From an uncultured Alphaproteobacteria bacterium (GTDB lineage: Bacteria; Pseudomonadota; Alphaproteobacteria; RF32; CAG-239): DNA of 64,000 nucleotides. The stretch covers positions 14-64,013 of the forward strand of contig CABQIK010000002.1 in assembly GCA_902464275.1 (NCBI GenBank), in the 5' to 3' direction. Positions 38,127 to 62,383 of this stretch are shown here, one piece after another. A model generated the notes under the pieces. It worked only from the letters and a program-made list of their open reading frames with translations. It did not search any database and was not told where the DNA came from. How positions within the stretch are numbered: the first letter of the stretch is position 1; each line of letters opens with the position of its first letter. The position numbers and the translations under genes are program-made.

Positions 38127-38203
38127 GGGTGTGTAGCTCAGGTGGTTAGAGCGTTACGTTGACATCGTAGAGGTCGCAGGTTCGAGTCCTGCCACTCCCA
38201 CCA
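38127..38203 (+). tRNA. tRNA-Val (anticodon GAC)
   Basis: Cloverleaf folded by hand: acceptor GGGTGTG/CACTCCC, D-arm GCTC-AGGTGGTTA-GAGC, anticodon arm TTACG-TTGACAT-CGTAG, T-arm GCAGG-TTCGAGT-CCTGC, then A-CCA. Confidence 0.9.
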
Positions 38204-38550
38204 ATAAATAAGTCCCCTTCACGGGGATTTTTTATTGGTGAAAACAGAAAGAACCTGCGACCTCGTTAGAGGCTTGAGGATAAAAACAGCCGAAGTAACG
38301 GCTGTTTTTACCGCAAAAGGCGTAGTTTTGTTTGCGAGCCAGGAAAGCGGCAGCGACCGCAGCGAGCCAACAAAACAAGTGACCGACGCGCAGTTAGTGA
38401 AAGCTTTTACAAAAATAAGCTTGCGGAGAATGCGGCTAATGTGCAGCAAGTTTTTTTCTGCGGTATACTAAACCGCTACATAAAGAAAAAACTTGCTAGC
38501 AGGAGCCCATTATACGCAGGCGTAAAAGCTTGAACTTACTAAGCTAGACA
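38204..38550. mobile_element. small non-coding tRNA-associated element bounded by 81/82-nt direct repeats (38178-38258 and 38551-38632) that comprise the tRNA-Val 3' end plus its downstream hairpin
   Basis: The second copy of aggttcgagtcctgccactcccaccaataaataagtcccct(t)tacggggatttttt(t)attggtgaaaacagaaagaacctgc is read directly. The internal segment gaggataaaaa-hairpin-ttttt...gaccgcagcgag... is ~70% similar to the tRNA-Thr-linked 275-bp unit. Confidence 0.55.
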
Positions 38551-38652
38551 AGGTTCGAGTCCTGCCACTCCCACCAATAAATAAGTCCCCTTTACGGGGA
38601 TTTTTTTATTGGTGAAAACAGAAAGAACCTGCAATACCGTGGCTTTTGTAAA

Positions 38653-39690
38653 CTAAGGCTGTAAAACCTCCCAATAGCCGCCTTTGTCCGGACCTATGCG
38701 GCGAATTTTTTCTTCTTTTTTCAATTTTTCTAAATTCCATTTAACACCGTCAGGCGTAAGTCCGACAAGATTGGCTAGCTCTTTGCGGGTAGCTTTAGGA
38801 TTATTTGCCAGTATTTGTAAAATTTTCTGGGTAGTTCCAATAATGTTTTTCTGGGTAGTTTTCTGGGGAGTACCATCTGTTATCTGCATTGTTCGGTTAT
38901 CAAGCCGTGTATTTTCACCCAACAACAAATTTCCAAAAAAATTATTTAAGTATTCAAAGGTATAAAAAATATCTTTATTTAAATTTTGATAGTTAGCACG
39001 CACAAGAGCATTGCGGAAATATTTGGCATGAGCTTCAAACATATCATTATTGGTTGCAAAACCCAGTGTATATAAATATTTTATAATAAATACTGCCGTG
39101 GTACGGGTGTTACCTTCGCCAAACGGATGAATTTGCCATATCCCGGAAGTAAATTTTGCAAGGTGCTCCACTTTTTCACGCTTTGACAATCCTTTATAAT
39201 TAAACTTTTTTTCTTGTGCAAAATCATAATCAAGAGTTTCCATAATACTGTCAGCGCGGCCGTAAATAACGGTATCGCCATTTAATATCGGTTCTTTTTT
39301 GGTAATGTCGTATGTTCTGATTTTGCCGGCAATTTCTTTAGCAAAAATGCCTGTAAACAGCACTTTGTGAATAGATATTAATTCAGCCGGACTAAATGAA
39401 AAAGTATGCGTGCTTAAAAGTTTGGCAATACGCGCCGAAACCTCATCAGCCTCTTTTTCATTATGTTCTTGTACTGTTTTTGCCGGATTTTCTTGATAAT
39501 ATCTGCTGACTTGTTTTCCGGCTTCATCAATAGAAATTTTTCCCTCAATATTATCTTTGGCAATTTTTATCAGATATTGAGAAGGTATCAAATTGTCAAC
39601 CTGTTGCAAACCGATTGCAATACTCCAATTTTCGGCTTTTTTATATTTTTCCGGCTCGCCTTGTTTTTTGTATTCTTCAAAATGTTCCAT
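38653..39690 (-). CDS. fic: Fic/DOC family protein with a C-terminal winged HTH
   Basis: HPFGEGNTRTTAVFI matches the Fic core HPFx(D/E)GNGR motif. C-terminal ...TRKELANLVGLTPDGVKWNLEKLKKEEKIRR. Confidence 0.8.
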   Translation of the reverse strand: MEHFEEYKKQGEPEKYKKAENWSIAIGLQQVDNLIPSQYLIKIAKDNIEGKISIDEAGKQVSRYYQENPAKTVQEHNEKEADEVSARIAKLLSTHTFSFSPAELISIHKVLFTGIFAKEIAGKIRTYDITKKEPILNGDTVIYGRADSIMETLDYDFAQEKKFNYKGLSKREKVEHLAKFTSGIWQIHPFGEGNTRTTAVFIIKYLYTLGFATNNDMFEAHAKYFRNALVRANYQNLNKDIFYTFEYLNNFFGNLLLGENTRLDNRTMQITDGTPQKTTQKNIIGTTQKILQILANNPKATRKELANLVGLTPDGVKWNLEKLKKEEKIRRIGPDKGGYWEVLQP

Positions 39691-39787: not shown

Positions 39788-39880
39788 CAACTTATGCACA
39801 GTGCAGACTCGTAAATATTGCAAAAAAAAAACGCGAGCTAAAATCTTCTCAAAACTAACAATTTGAGGAGATTTTTTATT
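39788..39880 (+). promoter_or_regulatory. conserved pilin-family upstream element
   Basis: caacttatgcacagtgcagactcgtaaatattgcaAAAAAAAAAAcgcgagctaaaatcttc...gaggag. Confidence 0.6.
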
Positions 39881-40507
39881 ATGAAATCAGAAAATGGTCG
39901 GTCTATGGTGGAAATGCTCGGAGTTCTGGCTATTATCGGGGTGTTGTCGGTCGGCGCTATTGCCGGTTACTCCAAGGCAATGTTTAAGTATAAATTAAAT
40001 AAGCAAGCGGAAGGGTTTAACCTGCTGTTAAATAACGCTTTGCAACTTGAAGGAAGCTTGAATTTTACCCCCGATGCCGTAACTTATTACGGTGATTTAT
40101 TTAAAAAGCTTAACCTGATACCGGACGGTTTTAAGTATGAATCAAATTTTAGATTAAAAGACATGTTCAATAATGATATTTGGATTTATCATCATGACAA
40201 TTTAAATGGTAACGATTTACATTTCAGCGCTATCGGATATAAATTTCAACCCTCCTCGCAAGGCGCCGAGCTCTGCCGCAACATTGTGATAACCGCTAAA
40301 GAAAACGCAGCCGATTTATACGCGCTGACCACCACAAAATATAATAATGACGGAAGCTATAATCCGTCACAGGGAACTTTATACGGCGATAAGTTTTGCG
40401 ATGCCTCCGACAAACCCTGCATGCGCAATTTGACTTTAGATAAAATAGCCGGACTTTGCCATATATGTAACGAACAAACTTGCGACTTATATATAGAATG
40501 GCAATAA
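39881..40507 (+). CDS. type IV pilin-like protein, paralog 6
   Basis: MKSENG|RSMVEM...; subfamily B (..LIPDGFKY..IYHH..SSQGAELCRNIVITAKENAADLY..LYGDKFC....PCMRNLTLDKI..LCHICN). Confidence 0.8.
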   Translation: MKSENGRSMVEMLGVLAIIGVLSVGAIAGYSKAMFKYKLNKQAEGFNLLLNNALQLEGSLNFTPDAVTYYGDLFKKLNLIPDGFKYESNFRLKDMFNNDIWIYHHDNLNGNDLHFSAIGYKFQPSSQGAELCRNIVITAKENAADLYALTTTKYNNDGSYNPSQGTLYGDKFCDASDKPCMRNLTLDKIAGLCHICNEQTCDLYIEWQ

Positions 40508-51493: not shown

Positions 51494-52147
51494 ATGAAAT
51501 CAGAAAATGGTCGTTCTATGGTGGAAATGCTCGGGGTATTGGCGATAATCGGAGTGCTGAGTGTCGGGGCGATTAGCGGATATAGCAAAGCCATGTTTAA
51601 GTACAAACTCAATAAACATACGGAACAAATGAACACAGTGATAAACGCAGTTGCCCGCCATGCGCACAGCTTTGATAATATCCAACACAGAGATTCTTTA
51701 ATTCCATATTTTATTAAAATGGGCGAAATTCCAACTGAAATGGTGAGCACAAACGATGGTTACTACATCTTTGACGTTTTCAGACAGGCATGGTATATAC
51801 GTATTGAAGGCGGCGCTATAGTTTTAGCCTCAATGTATGATGTCGGTTCATCATTTTTATCCTCATTTTTATCCTCAAACTCTCCTGAAAATCTGGCAAT
51901 ATGTCAAAATACGTTAAACATCGCCAAAGAAAACGCGGATAACATAGATACTATTGTGATATACACGGCTAACTCCGGTTCCGCTAATAATAAATTTGAG
52001 TATATATTGGGTGATAAACTTTGTACCGCTGAATATATGCAATACGACAAATGTTTGAAAAACTTAACCTTAAATGATGTTCATACTCTCTGCACCGAAC
52101 AGTTAAAAAACGGCTATGGGTTATTCCAGTTATCATGGGAACAATAG
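51494..52147 (+). CDS. type IV pilin-like protein, paralog 8
   Basis: MKSENG|RSMVEM...AISGY; subfamily A. Confidence 0.8.
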   Translation: MKSENGRSMVEMLGVLAIIGVLSVGAISGYSKAMFKYKLNKHTEQMNTVINAVARHAHSFDNIQHRDSLIPYFIKMGEIPTEMVSTNDGYYIFDVFRQAWYIRIEGGAIVLASMYDVGSSFLSSFLSSNSPENLAICQNTLNIAKENADNIDTIVIYTANSGSANNKFEYILGDKLCTAEYMQYDKCLKNLTLNDVHTLCTEQLKNGYGLFQLSWEQ

Positions 52148-57418: not shown

Positions 57419-58186
57419 TTAAACAAGCAAAACCATGCCGTCATACGCCAAACGCCAGTTTTCAGGCACAAGCGCGGATAGCGTATTATAGTCAACCCTT
57501 GCCGATAAATGGGTTAACACCACCTGCTCCGGTTTTAAGATATTAACATAGTGTTTTATTTTAGCAATATTGCTGTGACCGTTGTTAAGCTCATATTCGC
57601 CGTTATTGCACTCGGCCAACAACATTTTAAGCCCTTGCATACGTTCTAAAGCTTTTGGGGGCAAACTTTCCCAATCGGTAACATACGCAACATCGCCAAA
57701 CCTGAAAGCGGAACTGTGTAAATTATGATGCGGCACGCAAAAAGTTTCAAATTCAACCCCGCCGATATTAACTTTTCCGAAATCAGGCAATATATTCCAC
57801 TGAAGGCGCACGCTATCAGGCTCCGCGCCGCTGAACAAATAAGCATAACTTTTTTGCAGTTCGCTCATGGTTTCAGCGCTTGCAAAAACCGGCAAGACAT
57901 GGTTTAAGATTTTACAGGCTCGCGGCAATTCAGGCACGCCGCCGATATGGTCATAATGGCAGTGAGTTAACAAAACCGCGTCAATATTTTGCACATTGTT
58001 ACGATTGATTTGCAATCTGAAATCAGGTCCGACATCAATTAAAAAATTTTTACCTTGAAACTCAAATAAAACGCAAGCGCGGGTACGCTCATTTTTAGGA
58101 TTATGCGGGTCAGCCAAATTCCACTGATTAAAACACATCGGGCAACCATAAGCCGAACCGGAACCGAGGATAGTAATTTTCATCAT
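57419..58186 (-). CDS. MBL-fold metallo-hydrolase (PhnP/RNase Z-like)
   Basis: THCHYDHIGG motif. Start at MMKITILGSGSAYGCP; the track's upstream extension is rejected. Confidence 0.65.
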   Translation of the reverse strand: MMKITILGSGSAYGCPMCFNQWNLADPHNPKNERTRACVLFEFQGKNFLIDVGPDFRLQINRNNVQNIDAVLLTHCHYDHIGGVPELPRACKILNHVLPVFASAETMSELQKSYAYLFSGAEPDSVRLQWNILPDFGKVNIGGVEFETFCVPHHNLHSSAFRFGDVAYVTDWESLPPKALERMQGLKMLLAECNNGEYELNNGHSNIAKIKHYVNILKPEQVVLTHLSARVDYNTLSALVPENWRLAYDGMVLLV

Positions 58187-58309
58187 AAGCACTCCATTTT
58201 TCAGACGCCGTATCAGGATATAGCATGACAGTATGCTTCTGTCCAGATAAAAAATTGTAGTCATTGTTGTTATAAACGGCACAAACAAATTTGACTCTTG
58301 CCGGAAAAT

Positions 58310-60130: not shown

Positions 60131-60886
60131 ATGAAATCACATTTTAGCCGCTTTTTACACATCACATCGTCATATTCGGGCTTGACCCGAATATCCAGGT
60201 GGAAAAAATTTGCTACTTGGTTTGACCTGGACACTCCGGTCAAGCCCGATAATGACAGCTTGTGTGCTGGTCGGTCTATGGTGGAAATGCTTGGCGTTCT
60301 GGCAATTATCGGAGTCTTATCCGTCGGGGCGATTGCCGGATACAGTAAAGCGATGTTTAAGTACAAATTAAATCAGCATGCACAAGCGGTTAATATGTTG
60401 ATAAATAATGCGCTTTCAATTAAAGATCAATTACAACATAAACTTAACGCGACCACATATTACGGAACCCTGTTGCACAAAATGAATCTGTTACCCGACG
60501 GTATAGAATATATTTCTGATACCACATTAAAAGAAAAGTATTTCAATAGCAATATTATGGTTTATTATATGCATAAGGAAGGTTTTGAAGACTTTGGCGG
60601 AATAGAGTTTAGCTTCAATCCCACAGCACAAGGTGCGGAAGTTTGCCGCAACATTGCATTTGCCGCCAAAGAAAATGCCGCTAATTTATGGGAGCTTGAA
60701 ACATATAAATATTTTAATGACACAACTTCAGGTGACGGTAAATTCATCGGGCATATATACGGTGATTCCTATTGTACAGAAGAAAAAAGCTGCCTGCGTG
60801 ATTTGGACTTAAACAAAATAGAAAAATTGTGCAACGATTGCAATGAAAAACGTTGCATGTTGTATGTTTTGTGGGAAAACCGCTAA
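60131..60886 (+). CDS. type IV pilin-like protein, paralog 10, with a ~123-bp in-frame palindromic insertion in the leader (leader 47 aa instead of 6)
   Basis: MKS[HFSRFLHITSSYSGLTRISRWKKFATWFDLDTPVKPDNDSLCA]G|RSMVEM.... Insertion bounded by the 11-bp IR cgggcttgacc (60177-87) / ggtcaagcccg (60238-48), with an inner IR tccaggt / acctgga. The mature part is subfamily B. Confidence 0.65.
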   Translation: MKSHFSRFLHITSSYSGLTRISRWKKFATWFDLDTPVKPDNDSLCAGRSMVEMLGVLAIIGVLSVGAIAGYSKAMFKYKLNQHAQAVNMLINNALSIKDQLQHKLNATTYYGTLLHKMNLLPDGIEYISDTTLKEKYFNSNIMVYYMHKEGFEDFGGIEFSFNPTAQGAEVCRNIAFAAKENAANLWELETYKYFNDTTSGDGKFIGHIYGDSYCTEEKSCLRDLDLNKIEKLCNDCNEKRCMLYVLWENR

Positions 60887-60889
60887 ATA

Positions 60890-60979
60890 CAACTTATGCA
60901 CAGCACGGACTCGTAAATATTGCAAAAAAAAAACGCGGAGTAAAATCTTCTCAAAACTAACTTTTTGAGGAGATTTTTT
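60890..60979 (+). promoter_or_regulatory. conserved pilin-family upstream element, starting 3 nt after the stop of paralog 10
   Basis: caacttatgcacagcacggactcgtaaatattgcaA10cgcggagtaaaatcttc...gaggag. Confidence 0.55.
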
Positions 60980-61687
60980 ATGTTTATTCTAAAAAATAAT
61001 CCAAGCCTGCGGAGAATGAGTCAGATGCGACGGAATTTTGGAGCGACTTGTACACAAAAAGGTACACGAGCGAGAAAATCCCTAGTAGATGACCATTATA
61101 CGCAGGCCCTAGGGCGGTCTATGGTGGAAATGCTGGGAGTTCTTGCCATTATCGGGGTACTGTCGGTTGGGGCGATTGCCGGATATAGTAAGGCGATGAT
61201 GAAGTATAAATTAAATAAGCAATCAGAGCAATTAACTCAAATTCTGTTTTCATTAGAACATTACCGCGAAATGCTTGGCCGCGACCGCAACAATATTGCA
61301 ACAAACACTTCTATAATCACTTTGCTCACCAAACTGAACGCCATTCCGCTTGAAATGATTAGACCGAATGATAATTTACAAATTTACGATGTTTTTGGTA
61401 ATCGTGTCAGTATTAGCTATTACGGAAACGGTTATTCTTATAACCTTGCGGTTTATTATCAACCCGACCAATATGATGTTTGCAATAATGTGTTTGAGCT
61501 GATTAAAGCCAATAGCGAAAAACTTTACTCTGTGGGTGTTAAACTAGATCAAACCGGTGATTTTGCTTCTCCGGCGTTATATGGAAAAACTATAAACAAT
61601 ATCAACAAAAGCGATATTTATGATTACTGCGCTTTATGCAAAAGCGGTCCTCGCTGCCGTGTTTCCGCCAATTTCAAATTTGAGTAA
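60980..61687 (+). CDS. type IV pilin-like protein, paralog 11 (divergent), with a ~117-bp in-frame palindromic insertion in the leader
   Basis: M[FILKNNPSLRRMSQMRRNFGATCTQKGTRARKSLVDDHYTQAL]G|RSMVEMLGVLAIIGVL...AGYSKAMMKYKLNK. Insertion has terminal IR gcctgcg (61004-10) / cgcaggc (61101-07). The track N-terminal extension is rejected. Confidence 0.6.
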   Translation: MFILKNNPSLRRMSQMRRNFGATCTQKGTRARKSLVDDHYTQALGRSMVEMLGVLAIIGVLSVGAIAGYSKAMMKYKLNKQSEQLTQILFSLEHYREMLGRDRNNIATNTSIITLLTKLNAIPLEMIRPNDNLQIYDVFGNRVSISYYGNGYSYNLAVYYQPDQYDVCNNVFELIKANSEKLYSVGVKLDQTGDFASPALYGKTINNINKSDIYDYCALCKSGPRCRVSANFKFE

Positions 61688-61757
61688 AAAACAAAACAGA
61701 ACATATTAAATTATCGTAACAATACACAAAGAGCCTTGATTTTTCAAGGCTTTAAAA

Positions 61758-62307
61758 TGGTGCCGGTTATGTGACTTGAACACACGACCCACGCTATTTA
61801 GAATGCGGCGAGGATAAAAATTGCTCCGGTGGAGCAATTTTTGACGCAGCGGGATAGTTTGTCGCCAAGGCGGCAAGCGACAGCGCAGGAGCCGCGGCGT
61901 TACAAACAGACTGACCGCAGCGAGTTAGCGATTGACCGCAGGGCAGAGCTTACGAGCCAGAGCTAGCAACGCAAAAATCCCCGTTGCTTTAGCGGCGGGG
62001 ATTTTTACTTAAAAGGTATCTCTTAAAAAAACTGGTGCCGGTTATGTGACTTGAACACACGACCCACGCCATTTAGAATGCGGCGAGGATAAAAATTGCT
62101 CCGGTGGAGCAATTTTTGACGCAGCGGGATAGTTTGTCGCCAAGGCGGCAAGCGACAGCGCAGGAGCCGCGGCGTTACAAACAGACTGACCGCAGCGAGT
62201 TAGCGATTGACCGCAGGGCAGAGCTTACGAGCCAGAGCTAGCAACGCAAAAATCCCCGTTGCTTTAGCGGCGGGGATTTTTACTTAAAAGGTATCTCTTA
62301 AAAAAAC
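61758..62307. repeat. tandem direct repeat, 275-bp unit x2 (61758-62032, 62033-62307). Each unit begins with a 38-nt exact copy, plus ~15 nt degenerate, of the 3' half of the adjacent tRNA-Thr
   Basis: Period measured from tggtgccgg at 61758, 62033 and 62308. Units differ by only a few substitutions. The non-coding body carries two hairpin+T-run structures (ttgctccggtggagcaa+ttttt; aaaatccccg...cggggatttt). Confidence 0.85.

Positions 62308-62383
<76 letters not shown>

Follow-up and report, generated by a model that had tools for sequence, protein, structure and literature searches.

The DNA stretch analyzed here, the window, comprises 64,000 nucleotides (nt) of contig CABQIK010000002.1 from an uncultured bacterium of the class Alphaproteobacteria. 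ARAGORN and Rfam detected two tRNA genes in it, tRNA-Val(GAC) and tRNA-Thr(CGT), and both are accompanied by small units that combine partial copies of the neighboring tRNA gene with a folded module of about 160 nt, termed M. The features at the Val locus are listed first; copies and contigs from outside the window carry L numbers.

38127-38203, + strand: tRNA-Val(GAC), intact (ARAGORN; Rfam tRNA, 65.5 bits)
38178-38258, + strand: direct repeat, copy 1, consisting of tRNA-Val positions 52-77, the terminator and TGGTGAAAACAGAAAGAACCTGC (repeat search, local alignment)
38199-38240, no strand assigned: terminator hairpin t, copy 1, with a stem reaching into the tRNA CCA end and its inverted copy, CACCAAT...ATTGGTG (inverted repeat)
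38236-38264, + strand: tRNA-Val 3' part, copied in inverted orientation with an internal deletion, TGGTG...GAACCTGCGACCTC (inverted repeat, tRNA mapping)
38261-38272, + strand: small hairpin CCTC-GTTA-GAGG, at the turn from inverted to direct tRNA-like sequence (sequence, minimum free energy (MFE) fold)
38273-38550, + strand: module M, Val-linked copy (leave-out profile match at 38270-38410, E 3.3e-28), with the 5' end CTTGAGGATAAAAA, hairpin hp1 at 38282-38309, hairpin P2 at 38322-38379, the invariant single-stranded motif TGACCG..AGTTAG at 38380-38397, and hairpin P3 at 38398-38550, ending with CTTACTAAGCTAGACA
38407-38531, + strand: palindromic insert of 125 nt within the P3 loop of the Val-linked M (comparison with L065, L088 and L080)
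38551-38632, + strand: direct repeat, copy 2, consisting of partial tRNA-Val positions 52-77 (38551-38576), a second terminator (38572-38614) and TGGTGAAAACAGAAAGAACCTGC

An earlier note on this DNA had recognized the direct repeats as 81/82-nt copies of the tRNA-Val 3' end plus its terminator, and a repeat search recovered them with exactly these lengths, one mismatch and one 1-nt indel apart. Each repeat begins at tRNA position 52 and extends 55 nt beyond the 3' end (local alignment). Thus, it contains the final 26 nt of the tRNA, the bidirectional hairpin, which scores terminator-like on both strands, and 19 further bases (GAAAACAGAAAGAACCTGC). The non-coding segment between the repeats is smaller than the approximately 350 bp given in the note; the interior has 292 nt (38259-38550), and the unit has a period of 373 nt. 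Near its start the note had seen a degenerate reverse complement of the tRNA 3' end. In fact, GAACCTGCGACCTC (38251-38264) is a perfect reverse complement (14/14) of tRNA-Val positions 44-57, i.e., of the variable loop, the 5' strand of the T-stem and the beginning of the T-loop, and not of the 3' end. The small CCTC-GTTA-GAGG hairpin was seen in the MFE fold, and a matching architecture was found at other tRNAs. The fold of the whole Val unit (38236-38640) has a z-score of -9.3. The 125-nt insert in P3 is lacking in most family members, including the orthologous Val copy of a sister species, L065, and it is present with 90% identity in L088 (tRNA-Asp) and L080. It contains the motif GAATGCGGCTAATG, which recurs upstream of M copies from rabbit gut genomes.

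The Thr locus contains the following features:

62308-62383, - strand: tRNA-Thr(CGT), intact (ARAGORN; Rfam, 69.9 bits)
61754-62028 and 62029-62303, no strand assigned: two tandem units of 275 nt, 99% identical (repeat search)
61758-61794, - strand: partial tRNA-Thr, copy 1 (positions 40-76), with an altered anticodon-arm remnant at 61795-61807
62033-62069, - strand: partial tRNA-Thr, copy 2 (positions 40-76)
61808-61963, + strand: module M, Thr-linked copy 1 (leave-out profile, E 1.5e-20), with hp1 at 61816-61842, P2 at 61853-61911, the motif at 61912-61928, and P3 plus the 3' end at 61929-61963
62083-62238, + strand: module M, Thr-linked copy 2 (leave-out profile, E 1.5e-20)
61973-62006 and 62248-62281, no strand assigned: hairpin resembling a terminator, located between M and the tRNA-derived piece that follows; copy 2 adjoins the intact tRNA (inverted repeats)
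61776-61804 and 62051-62079, + strand: sigma-70-like promoter TTGAAC-17-TAGAAT (promoter scan, 9/12 matches)

On the + strand each Thr unit opens with the reverse complement of tRNA-Thr positions 40-76, followed by the altered anticodon arm. The MFE fold of the Thr-linked M reproduces hp1, P2 and P3 with a z-score of -4.3. The sigma-70-like promoter is made up of the inverted T-loop and the mutated anticodon loop and ends 7 nt before the GGAT of M. Its -10 box is improved by departures from the true tRNA-Thr sequence. A predicted promoter next to M in the Thr units is suggestive, and it is not a family-wide feature (see below).

The earlier note had judged the Val and Thr segments to be about 70% similar by eye, and the global identity is indeed 72% over the 5' part, i.e., two-thirds, of the module. 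The motifs that had been named, GAGGATAAAAA-hairpin-TTTTT and CAGTTAGTGA, are present at 38276-38309 and 38389-38399, respectively. A pairwise alignment had been proposed as a check, and it did not turn out to be significant on its own. The strict local alignment of Val and Thr merely equaled the best of 300 shuffles, and blastn (word size 7) as well as single-sequence nhmmer gave E-values of about 1 or worse for this pair. Homology was established only via a family profile, which was built from 42 copies from other genomes with all Val-type and Thr(CGT)-type copies excluded. Within the 64-kb window this leave-out profile had only three matches, 38270-38410 (E 3.3e-28), 61808-61962 and 62083-62237 (E 1.5e-20 each), showing that the Val and the Thr loci share a homologous module of about 160 nt. 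The conserved unit is M and not the whole segment between the repeats. Further occurrences of GAGGATAAAAA in the window (51854-51876 and others) lie within coding sequence and are unrelated, and the 23 matches of the AT-rich pattern GAGGATAAAAA..TTTTT..TAGTTT on viral contigs were all due to chance.

M has a length of 157-171 nt. The consensus starts with (G)CTCGA-GGATAAAAA, followed by hp1 (A5-stem-T5, terminator-like), ACCGCAAGAGGCG, the long hairpin P2, the invariant AAGTGACCGAAGCGAGTTAG, P3 and, at the end, CGAGC-NAGA. In P3, GTTAG pairs with CTTAC across a conserved T-T mismatch. The hairpin hp1 is 9 nt away from the 5' end, P3 adjoins the 3' end, and the terminal inverted repeat has only 5 bp (GCTCG/CGAGC). 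The covariance analysis backed the shared fold by compensatory changes: of the 25 pairs that RNAalifold predicted, 16 show compensatory double changes. In a 47-sequence alignment the three hairpins covaried, and 96.5% of the cells were paired, compared to 35-54% when the partners were slid by 1-3 columns; none of 500 shuffles attained the observed values. Among the wobble pairs 27 were G-U and 4 were A-C, and this asymmetry indicates that the strand as written is the folding strand, as RNA or as single-stranded DNA.

Searches for a known function of M gave negative results. In Rfam 15 only tRNA reached the threshold, nothing credible was found at E-values up to 10 for the window loci or up to 1 for L100, and these Rfam searches did not reveal a group I intron signature. 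No conserved reading frame for a small protein was found in M; the longest frames are spread over all six frames, and the lengths are not multiples of three. No family-wide promoter was found upstream of the folding strand (observed score 6.7, compared to 6.9 in shuffles). The M-sense strand was C-rich at 30 of 43 loci. This effect is weak and the loci are not independent, and a bias of M toward one replication strand was rejected.

The core pattern GGATAAAAA-N(80-105)-TGACCG-N(4-7)-AGTTAG was scanned against one genome per species and yielded 65 loci. The 52 true copies were located in 31 genomes of uncultured gut Alphaproteobacteria, and the other 13 were chance matches in unrelated phyla. 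A scan of metagenomes added 27 further true copies, mostly from human gut. The hosts came from human, rabbit, sheep, roe deer and chicken gut, and one of them is named, Candidatus Scatocola, of the order Rhodospirillales. The tRNA genes beside the copies, which represent at least 18 anticodon types, are 50-113 nt away, and up to seven copies were present per genome among those retrieved. Two rabbit gut genomes contain at least 13 copies with identities of 90-98%, mostly not beside tRNAs; the units are 280-340 nt long there, and their ends are fossil T-arm-like inverted repeats. M is thus a discrete, multi-copy family. The genome scan proposed in the earlier note hence revealed dozens of copies in other gut alphaproteobacterial genomes, and these copies bear out its view of a family with a non-local origin, while the word "targeting", which it had used for the relation to tRNAs, stays a matter of interpretation.

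A few records with M carry unexpected taxonomic labels. L084 and L093 (CAVBCV01) are labelled Lachnospiraceae, their M copies are 96% identical to the Thr-linked copy of the window, and the tRNA loci are of the alphaproteobacterial type; the bin label is probably wrong. L114 (an IMG/VR contig) and L115 (MT837050.1, "Bacteriophage sp.") contain M and encode housekeeping-type genes and a tRNA locus, and these "viral" records look like misfiled bacterial contigs. A search of a plasmid collection with M cassettes gave no match. A phage or plasmid origin was rejected, because a plasmid match was lacking and one viral contig and two "phage" records proved to be bacterial contigs with housekeeping genes.

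The neighboring tRNA was mapped onto the flanks of each M copy, and a common order emerged: the intact tRNA, a terminator, the 3' part of the tRNA as an inverted, diverged copy, the 5' strand of the stem as a direct copy, M, the stretch from the loop to CCA as a direct copy, and often a second terminator. M thus lies within a loop of a partial tRNA copy. The T-loop is used at Val, Glu, Asp, Asn, Ser, Thr(TGT), Arg, Lys and Gly, and the anticodon loop is used at Pro and Thr(CGT), e.g., in L115 with GCTTGCTTTGGG, then M, then CAAGATGCC...CCA. For Val, Glu, Asp, Thr(TGT) and Ser the direct copy begins at the 3' end of M with tRNA positions 52-57. M occurs in either orientation within the tRNA fragment and is reversed at Arg, Lys and Gly, the arrangement at tRNA-Arg being tRNA(48-58) - reversed M - (62-77). 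At tRNA-Pro the partial copy can also be upstream and then includes the promoter region and positions 1-38. The direct repeats at M loci have lengths of 10-110 nt (81/82 nt at Val, 37 nt at Thr). At the 48 assessable tRNA genes of the retrieved loci an inverted piece was found in 26 cases, a direct piece in 29 cases and both in 21 cases; tRNAs without M have plain terminators.

An intact tRNA gene is always retained next to the cassette. The interrupted copies cover only positions of about 41-76, 27-77 or 1-52, and ARAGORN does not call a tRNA there; lacking either the 5' half or the 3' end, they are unable to yield a tRNA. The tRNA-derived flanks are copied from the local tRNA: in one genome a Val-linked and an Asp-linked M are 97% identical, yet their flanks are Val-specific and Asp-specific, respectively. 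As copies of the local tRNA and its terminator, the flanking repeats behave as target duplications and not as ends of the element. The same architecture was seen with other short GC-rich cargos, unrelated to M, at tRNA-Pro(TGG) (L100, L052, L068, L089 and L145), where the layout is an inverted tRNA piece, a small loop, the T-stem plus TTCGA, the cargo and AATCC...CCA. Given these cargos, the insertion scheme may be more general than the M family alone. Two further ideas about the cassette were discarded. M as a scaffold with a tRNA-derived RNA guide did not hold, as the sequence after M is sense or antisense to the tRNA depending on the locus, and a rod-like circle model agreed with the Val unit but failed for the Thr unit.

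Neighboring proteins led to contigs of the same species. Five assemblies had a single Val unit and one had two; for two others, which contain N gaps, the number was at least two or three. The Thr locus had one or two units among the strains. The copy number of the cassette thus differs between strains, and tandem arrays of M were seen at other loci too. The orientation of M was constant among the sampled strains, and therefore an invertible switch was rejected. In related species, in which the neighboring N-formylglutamate amidohydrolase has 71-73% identity to that of the window, tRNA-Val(GAC) is followed by a simple terminator only, showing that the Val unit is an insertion. In L008, which belongs to the same species, the sequence after the CCA end of tRNA-Val consists of another terminator and of an element with genes for a large serine recombinase of 543 aa and a DUF2924 protein, and no M unit was seen on this contig. 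In L014 (700-1030), also of the same species, AT-rich foreign DNA and a gene resembling those of AAA-ATPases take the place of the 5' part of the Thr-linked M. The sequence becomes homologous to the window again exactly at GAGTTAG, and thus this motif may be a recombination point. About seven truncated copies were found, of which six keep the 3' end (starting at model positions 60, 83, 94, 107, 116 and 125) and one keeps the 5' end.

Several other genes lie close to the tRNA loci of the window. A gene for a Fic-domain protein with a C-terminal helix-turn-helix domain (38653-39690, - strand) ends 20 nt past the second Val direct repeat. It is absent at the orthologous position of L065, indicating that the flank of tRNA-Val is a hot spot of rearrangement. 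At least four paralogous genes encode proteins with a prepilin-type N-terminus (GRSMVEMLGVLAIIGVLSVGAIAGYSKAM), i.e., 39863-40507, 51494-52147 (- strand), 60131-60886 and 60965-61687. Two of them flank the tRNA loci, and one is truncated in L065 directly beside the partial tRNA-Val. The product of 57419-58288 (- strand) has precomputed matches to Anti-Pycsar Apyc1 and metallo-beta-lactamase fold families, and its gene has a chromosomal setting near a Y-family polymerase gene.

The explanation that we consider best, and to which we assign about an even chance, is that a non-autonomous element with M as its core invades loops of tRNA genes and is amplified through the tRNA-derived repeats. M would be the cis-acting core, and a trans-acting enzyme would recognize the folded strand, as single-stranded DNA or as RNA, and insert it in either orientation into exposed conserved loops of tRNA genes. 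Only insertions that also duplicated the 3' part of the tRNA and the terminator would survive, because one working tRNA then remains. The decayed inverted piece could have formed incidentally, by fold-back or by a template switch at the hairpin of the terminator, or it could be one arm of a folded recombination site; together with the varied junctions it would point to template switching or fold-back rather than to a clean site-specific reaction. The direct repeats of 10-110 nt would allow homologous recombination to expand and contract the array and to loop out circles. Once in another genome, the circles could insert again at the same tRNA, which would explain that M lineages mostly track the identity of the tRNA. 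The points in favor of this explanation are the family with its covarying one-strand fold, the location of M in tRNA loops, the local origin of the flanks, the M-free tRNA-Val loci of related species, the varying number of units and the proliferation in the rabbit gut genomes. The 97% identical Val/Asp pair and the burst in the rabbit gut genomes are signs of recent activity.

Several observations weigh against this explanation. No transposase, integrase or reverse transcriptase was found within 4-8 kb of any M copy, nor was one identified in trans. No parent element was present in 400 kb of DNA flanking M copies, phmmer with the XerC of the window detected only XerC orthologues at M loci, and the only recurrent neighbor family is a secreted paralogous protein and not a mobility enzyme. 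The junctions lie at varied tRNA positions (28, 40, 52, 56, 57, 62, 65, 68, 70 and 71-73) and do not fit one precise site-specific reaction. Across genomes the copies group mostly by tRNA identity (Thr(CGT), Ser(CGA), Asn, Glu, Pro(GGG) and Thr(TGT)), indicating old, inherited insertions in many cases. The conservation of M somewhat exceeds that of the spacer, as would also be expected for a resident functional element, the 97% identity of the Val/Asp pair could be explained by gene conversion instead of a new insertion, and the differences in copy number rest on metagenome assemblies, some of them with N gaps.

A more far-reaching version of the mobile-element explanation is that M is the core of an undescribed class of mobile elements with a general insertion mechanism, in which a folded strand, as DNA or via RNA, would invade conserved tRNA loops, regenerate the tRNA by a palindromic target duplication and, as it carries part of its target, could spread from genome to genome through homology alone. 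We regard this version as possible, but tentative. A new insertion mechanism is a realistic possibility. Full-text literature searches did not retrieve a description of such elements, but the literature coverage was incomplete, so an earlier description is possible.

The strongest competitor, although somewhat doubtful, is that M is a resident functional non-coding RNA or structural DNA element that is under selection at tRNA loci, where it might serve termination or processing or be a trans-acting small RNA. The copies would then stem from old duplications and no longer be mobile, and the tRNA-like flanks would supply the closing stem. The clustering of the copies by tRNA identity is consistent with this, and so are the identities at the syntenic Cys-Asn locus, which are 77-91% for M versus 50-79% for the flanking proteins. 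M is also usually better conserved than the adjacent spacer, i.e., 95-99% versus 86-89% at Glu and 80-88% versus 60-69% at Ser. The strong covariation with its G-U bias on one strand and the sigma-70-like promoter abutting M in the Thr units point in the same direction. However, a family-wide promoter is missing, the folding strand opens with a bidirectional terminator-like hairpin, and M lies in both orientations relative to tRNA transcription. In addition, M is absent at the same locus in related species, and the recent burst of near-identical copies away from tRNAs as well as the truncated and tandem copies are not what a resident element would lead one to expect.

An origin of the units as decayed integrase-type, i.e., cis-mobilizable, elements is unlikely. 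These units would carry attL and attR at tRNA genes, would have lost nearly all of their cargo and would be moved or accreted through the integrase of another element. The direct repeats with the tRNA 3' end fit this idea, the junctions lie in the T-loop or the anticodon loop, in which tRNA-targeting tyrosine integrases are known to cross over, and the same tRNA-Val bears the serine-recombinase element in L008. Against it, the interior contains no gene remnants and resembles neither plasmids nor genuine phage records. A single module type with locus-specific flanks at about 18 tRNAs is more than one integrase specificity can account for, both orientations and varied junctions also speak against it, and the inverted tRNA piece is foreign to a normal att site.

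Still less probable are cassettes that arose by reverse transcription, in which an M RNA joined to a tRNA or precursor tRNA would have been copied to DNA, a snap-back would have given the inverted piece, and homology to the tRNA gene would have provided entry into the chromosome. The strand-specific fold would suit an RNA template, nearly all truncated copies keep the 3' end, junctions are palindromic, the repeats include the terminator sequence, and the junctions lie in loops that are exposed in the folded tRNA. However, no reverse transcriptase was seen near M copies, and M is present in both orientations inside the tRNA fragment. The 3' bias was seen with only about seven truncated copies, and deletions beside an insertion hot spot would produce the same bias. 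Unrelated local duplications at Val and Thr with a chance GC-rich, low-complexity likeness would explain the non-significant pairwise alignment, but are refuted by the leave-out profile with its only three matches, by the shared covarying fold and by the dozens of copies in other genomes.

tRNA genes are classic landing sites of integrases, which are protein-guided and specific for one tRNA. Here, one small folded module is found in loops of about 18 tRNAs, with no recombinase near the copies, and the combined direct and inverted target duplication matches no standard scheme of transposition or integration. If M is mobile, it would represent an unknown mode of recognizing tRNA hairpins and a homology-carried spread between gut bacteria. 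If M is a resident RNA, it would be a new, widespread class of structured RNA in the poorly studied Alphaproteobacteria of the human gut. Either way, M explains partial tRNA copies that would otherwise be taken for ordinary integration scars, and the number of its units is a variable-number marker for strain typing.

The cassette was compared with four groups of known systems. Inserts of 100-200 nt in loops of stable RNAs, i.e., intervening sequences in bacterial rRNA helices and archaeal tRNA introns at non-canonical positions, are likewise structured and closed by a host stem, and the positions 37/38 and the T-loop agree. In contrast to them, M lacks a group I signature and does not interrupt an otherwise complete tRNA gene, as a tRNA intron of the group I or bulge-helix-bulge type would; the interrupted copies are incomplete. 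We know of no bacterial splicing route for such tRNA inserts. Integron attC cassettes and CTX-type phages, which use the host Xer recombinases, are recombination substrates folded from a single strand. Features that they would share with M are the one-strand fold, the inverted target-like copies, which could restore a duplex site upon folding, the lack of an own recombinase and the tandem arrays. M differs in that neither an integron integrase nor a dif-like site was found, its target is a tRNA hairpin, and the inverted pieces are specific for the local tRNA and decaying.

Miniature inverted-repeat transposable elements (MITEs) and repetitive extragenic palindrome (REP)-type repeats, such as REPIN-RAYT and palindromes derived from IS200/IS605, are also short, non-coding and multi-copy, with near-terminal hairpins and a strand-asymmetric fold. 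They rely on a trans-acting enzyme, as would M, and they undergo bursts, comparable to the one in the rabbit gut genomes. M differs by the terminal inverted repeat of only 5 bp and by tRNA loops as targets, and neither a parent insertion sequence nor a Y1 transposase was found in the loci of about 8 kb around the copies. Unlike MITEs, M has no target duplication of fixed length, but one of 10-110 nt with tRNA and terminator plus an inverted copy. The subterminal hairpins and the strand bias are compatible with, and not specific to, the IS200/IS605 or REP type.

Cis-mobilizable elements are decayed integrative elements that keep attL and attR at a tRNA gene (PMC5704250). Like the M cassette, they are small, gene-less pieces of DNA with direct repeats of the tRNA 3' end and tandem arrays, and they have no recombinase of their own. 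Direct repeats containing the 3' end of the target tRNA were indeed found at M loci, whereas derivation from an integrative element and a single fixed crossover and orientation were not. The M cassette differs by the lack of a trace of a parent element, the use of about 18 tRNAs with locus-specific flanks, both orientations, varied junctions and the extra inverted piece. Taken together, in its way of working the cassette comes closest to cis-mobilizable elements or to miniature repeats of the hairpin type, while failing defining tests of each.

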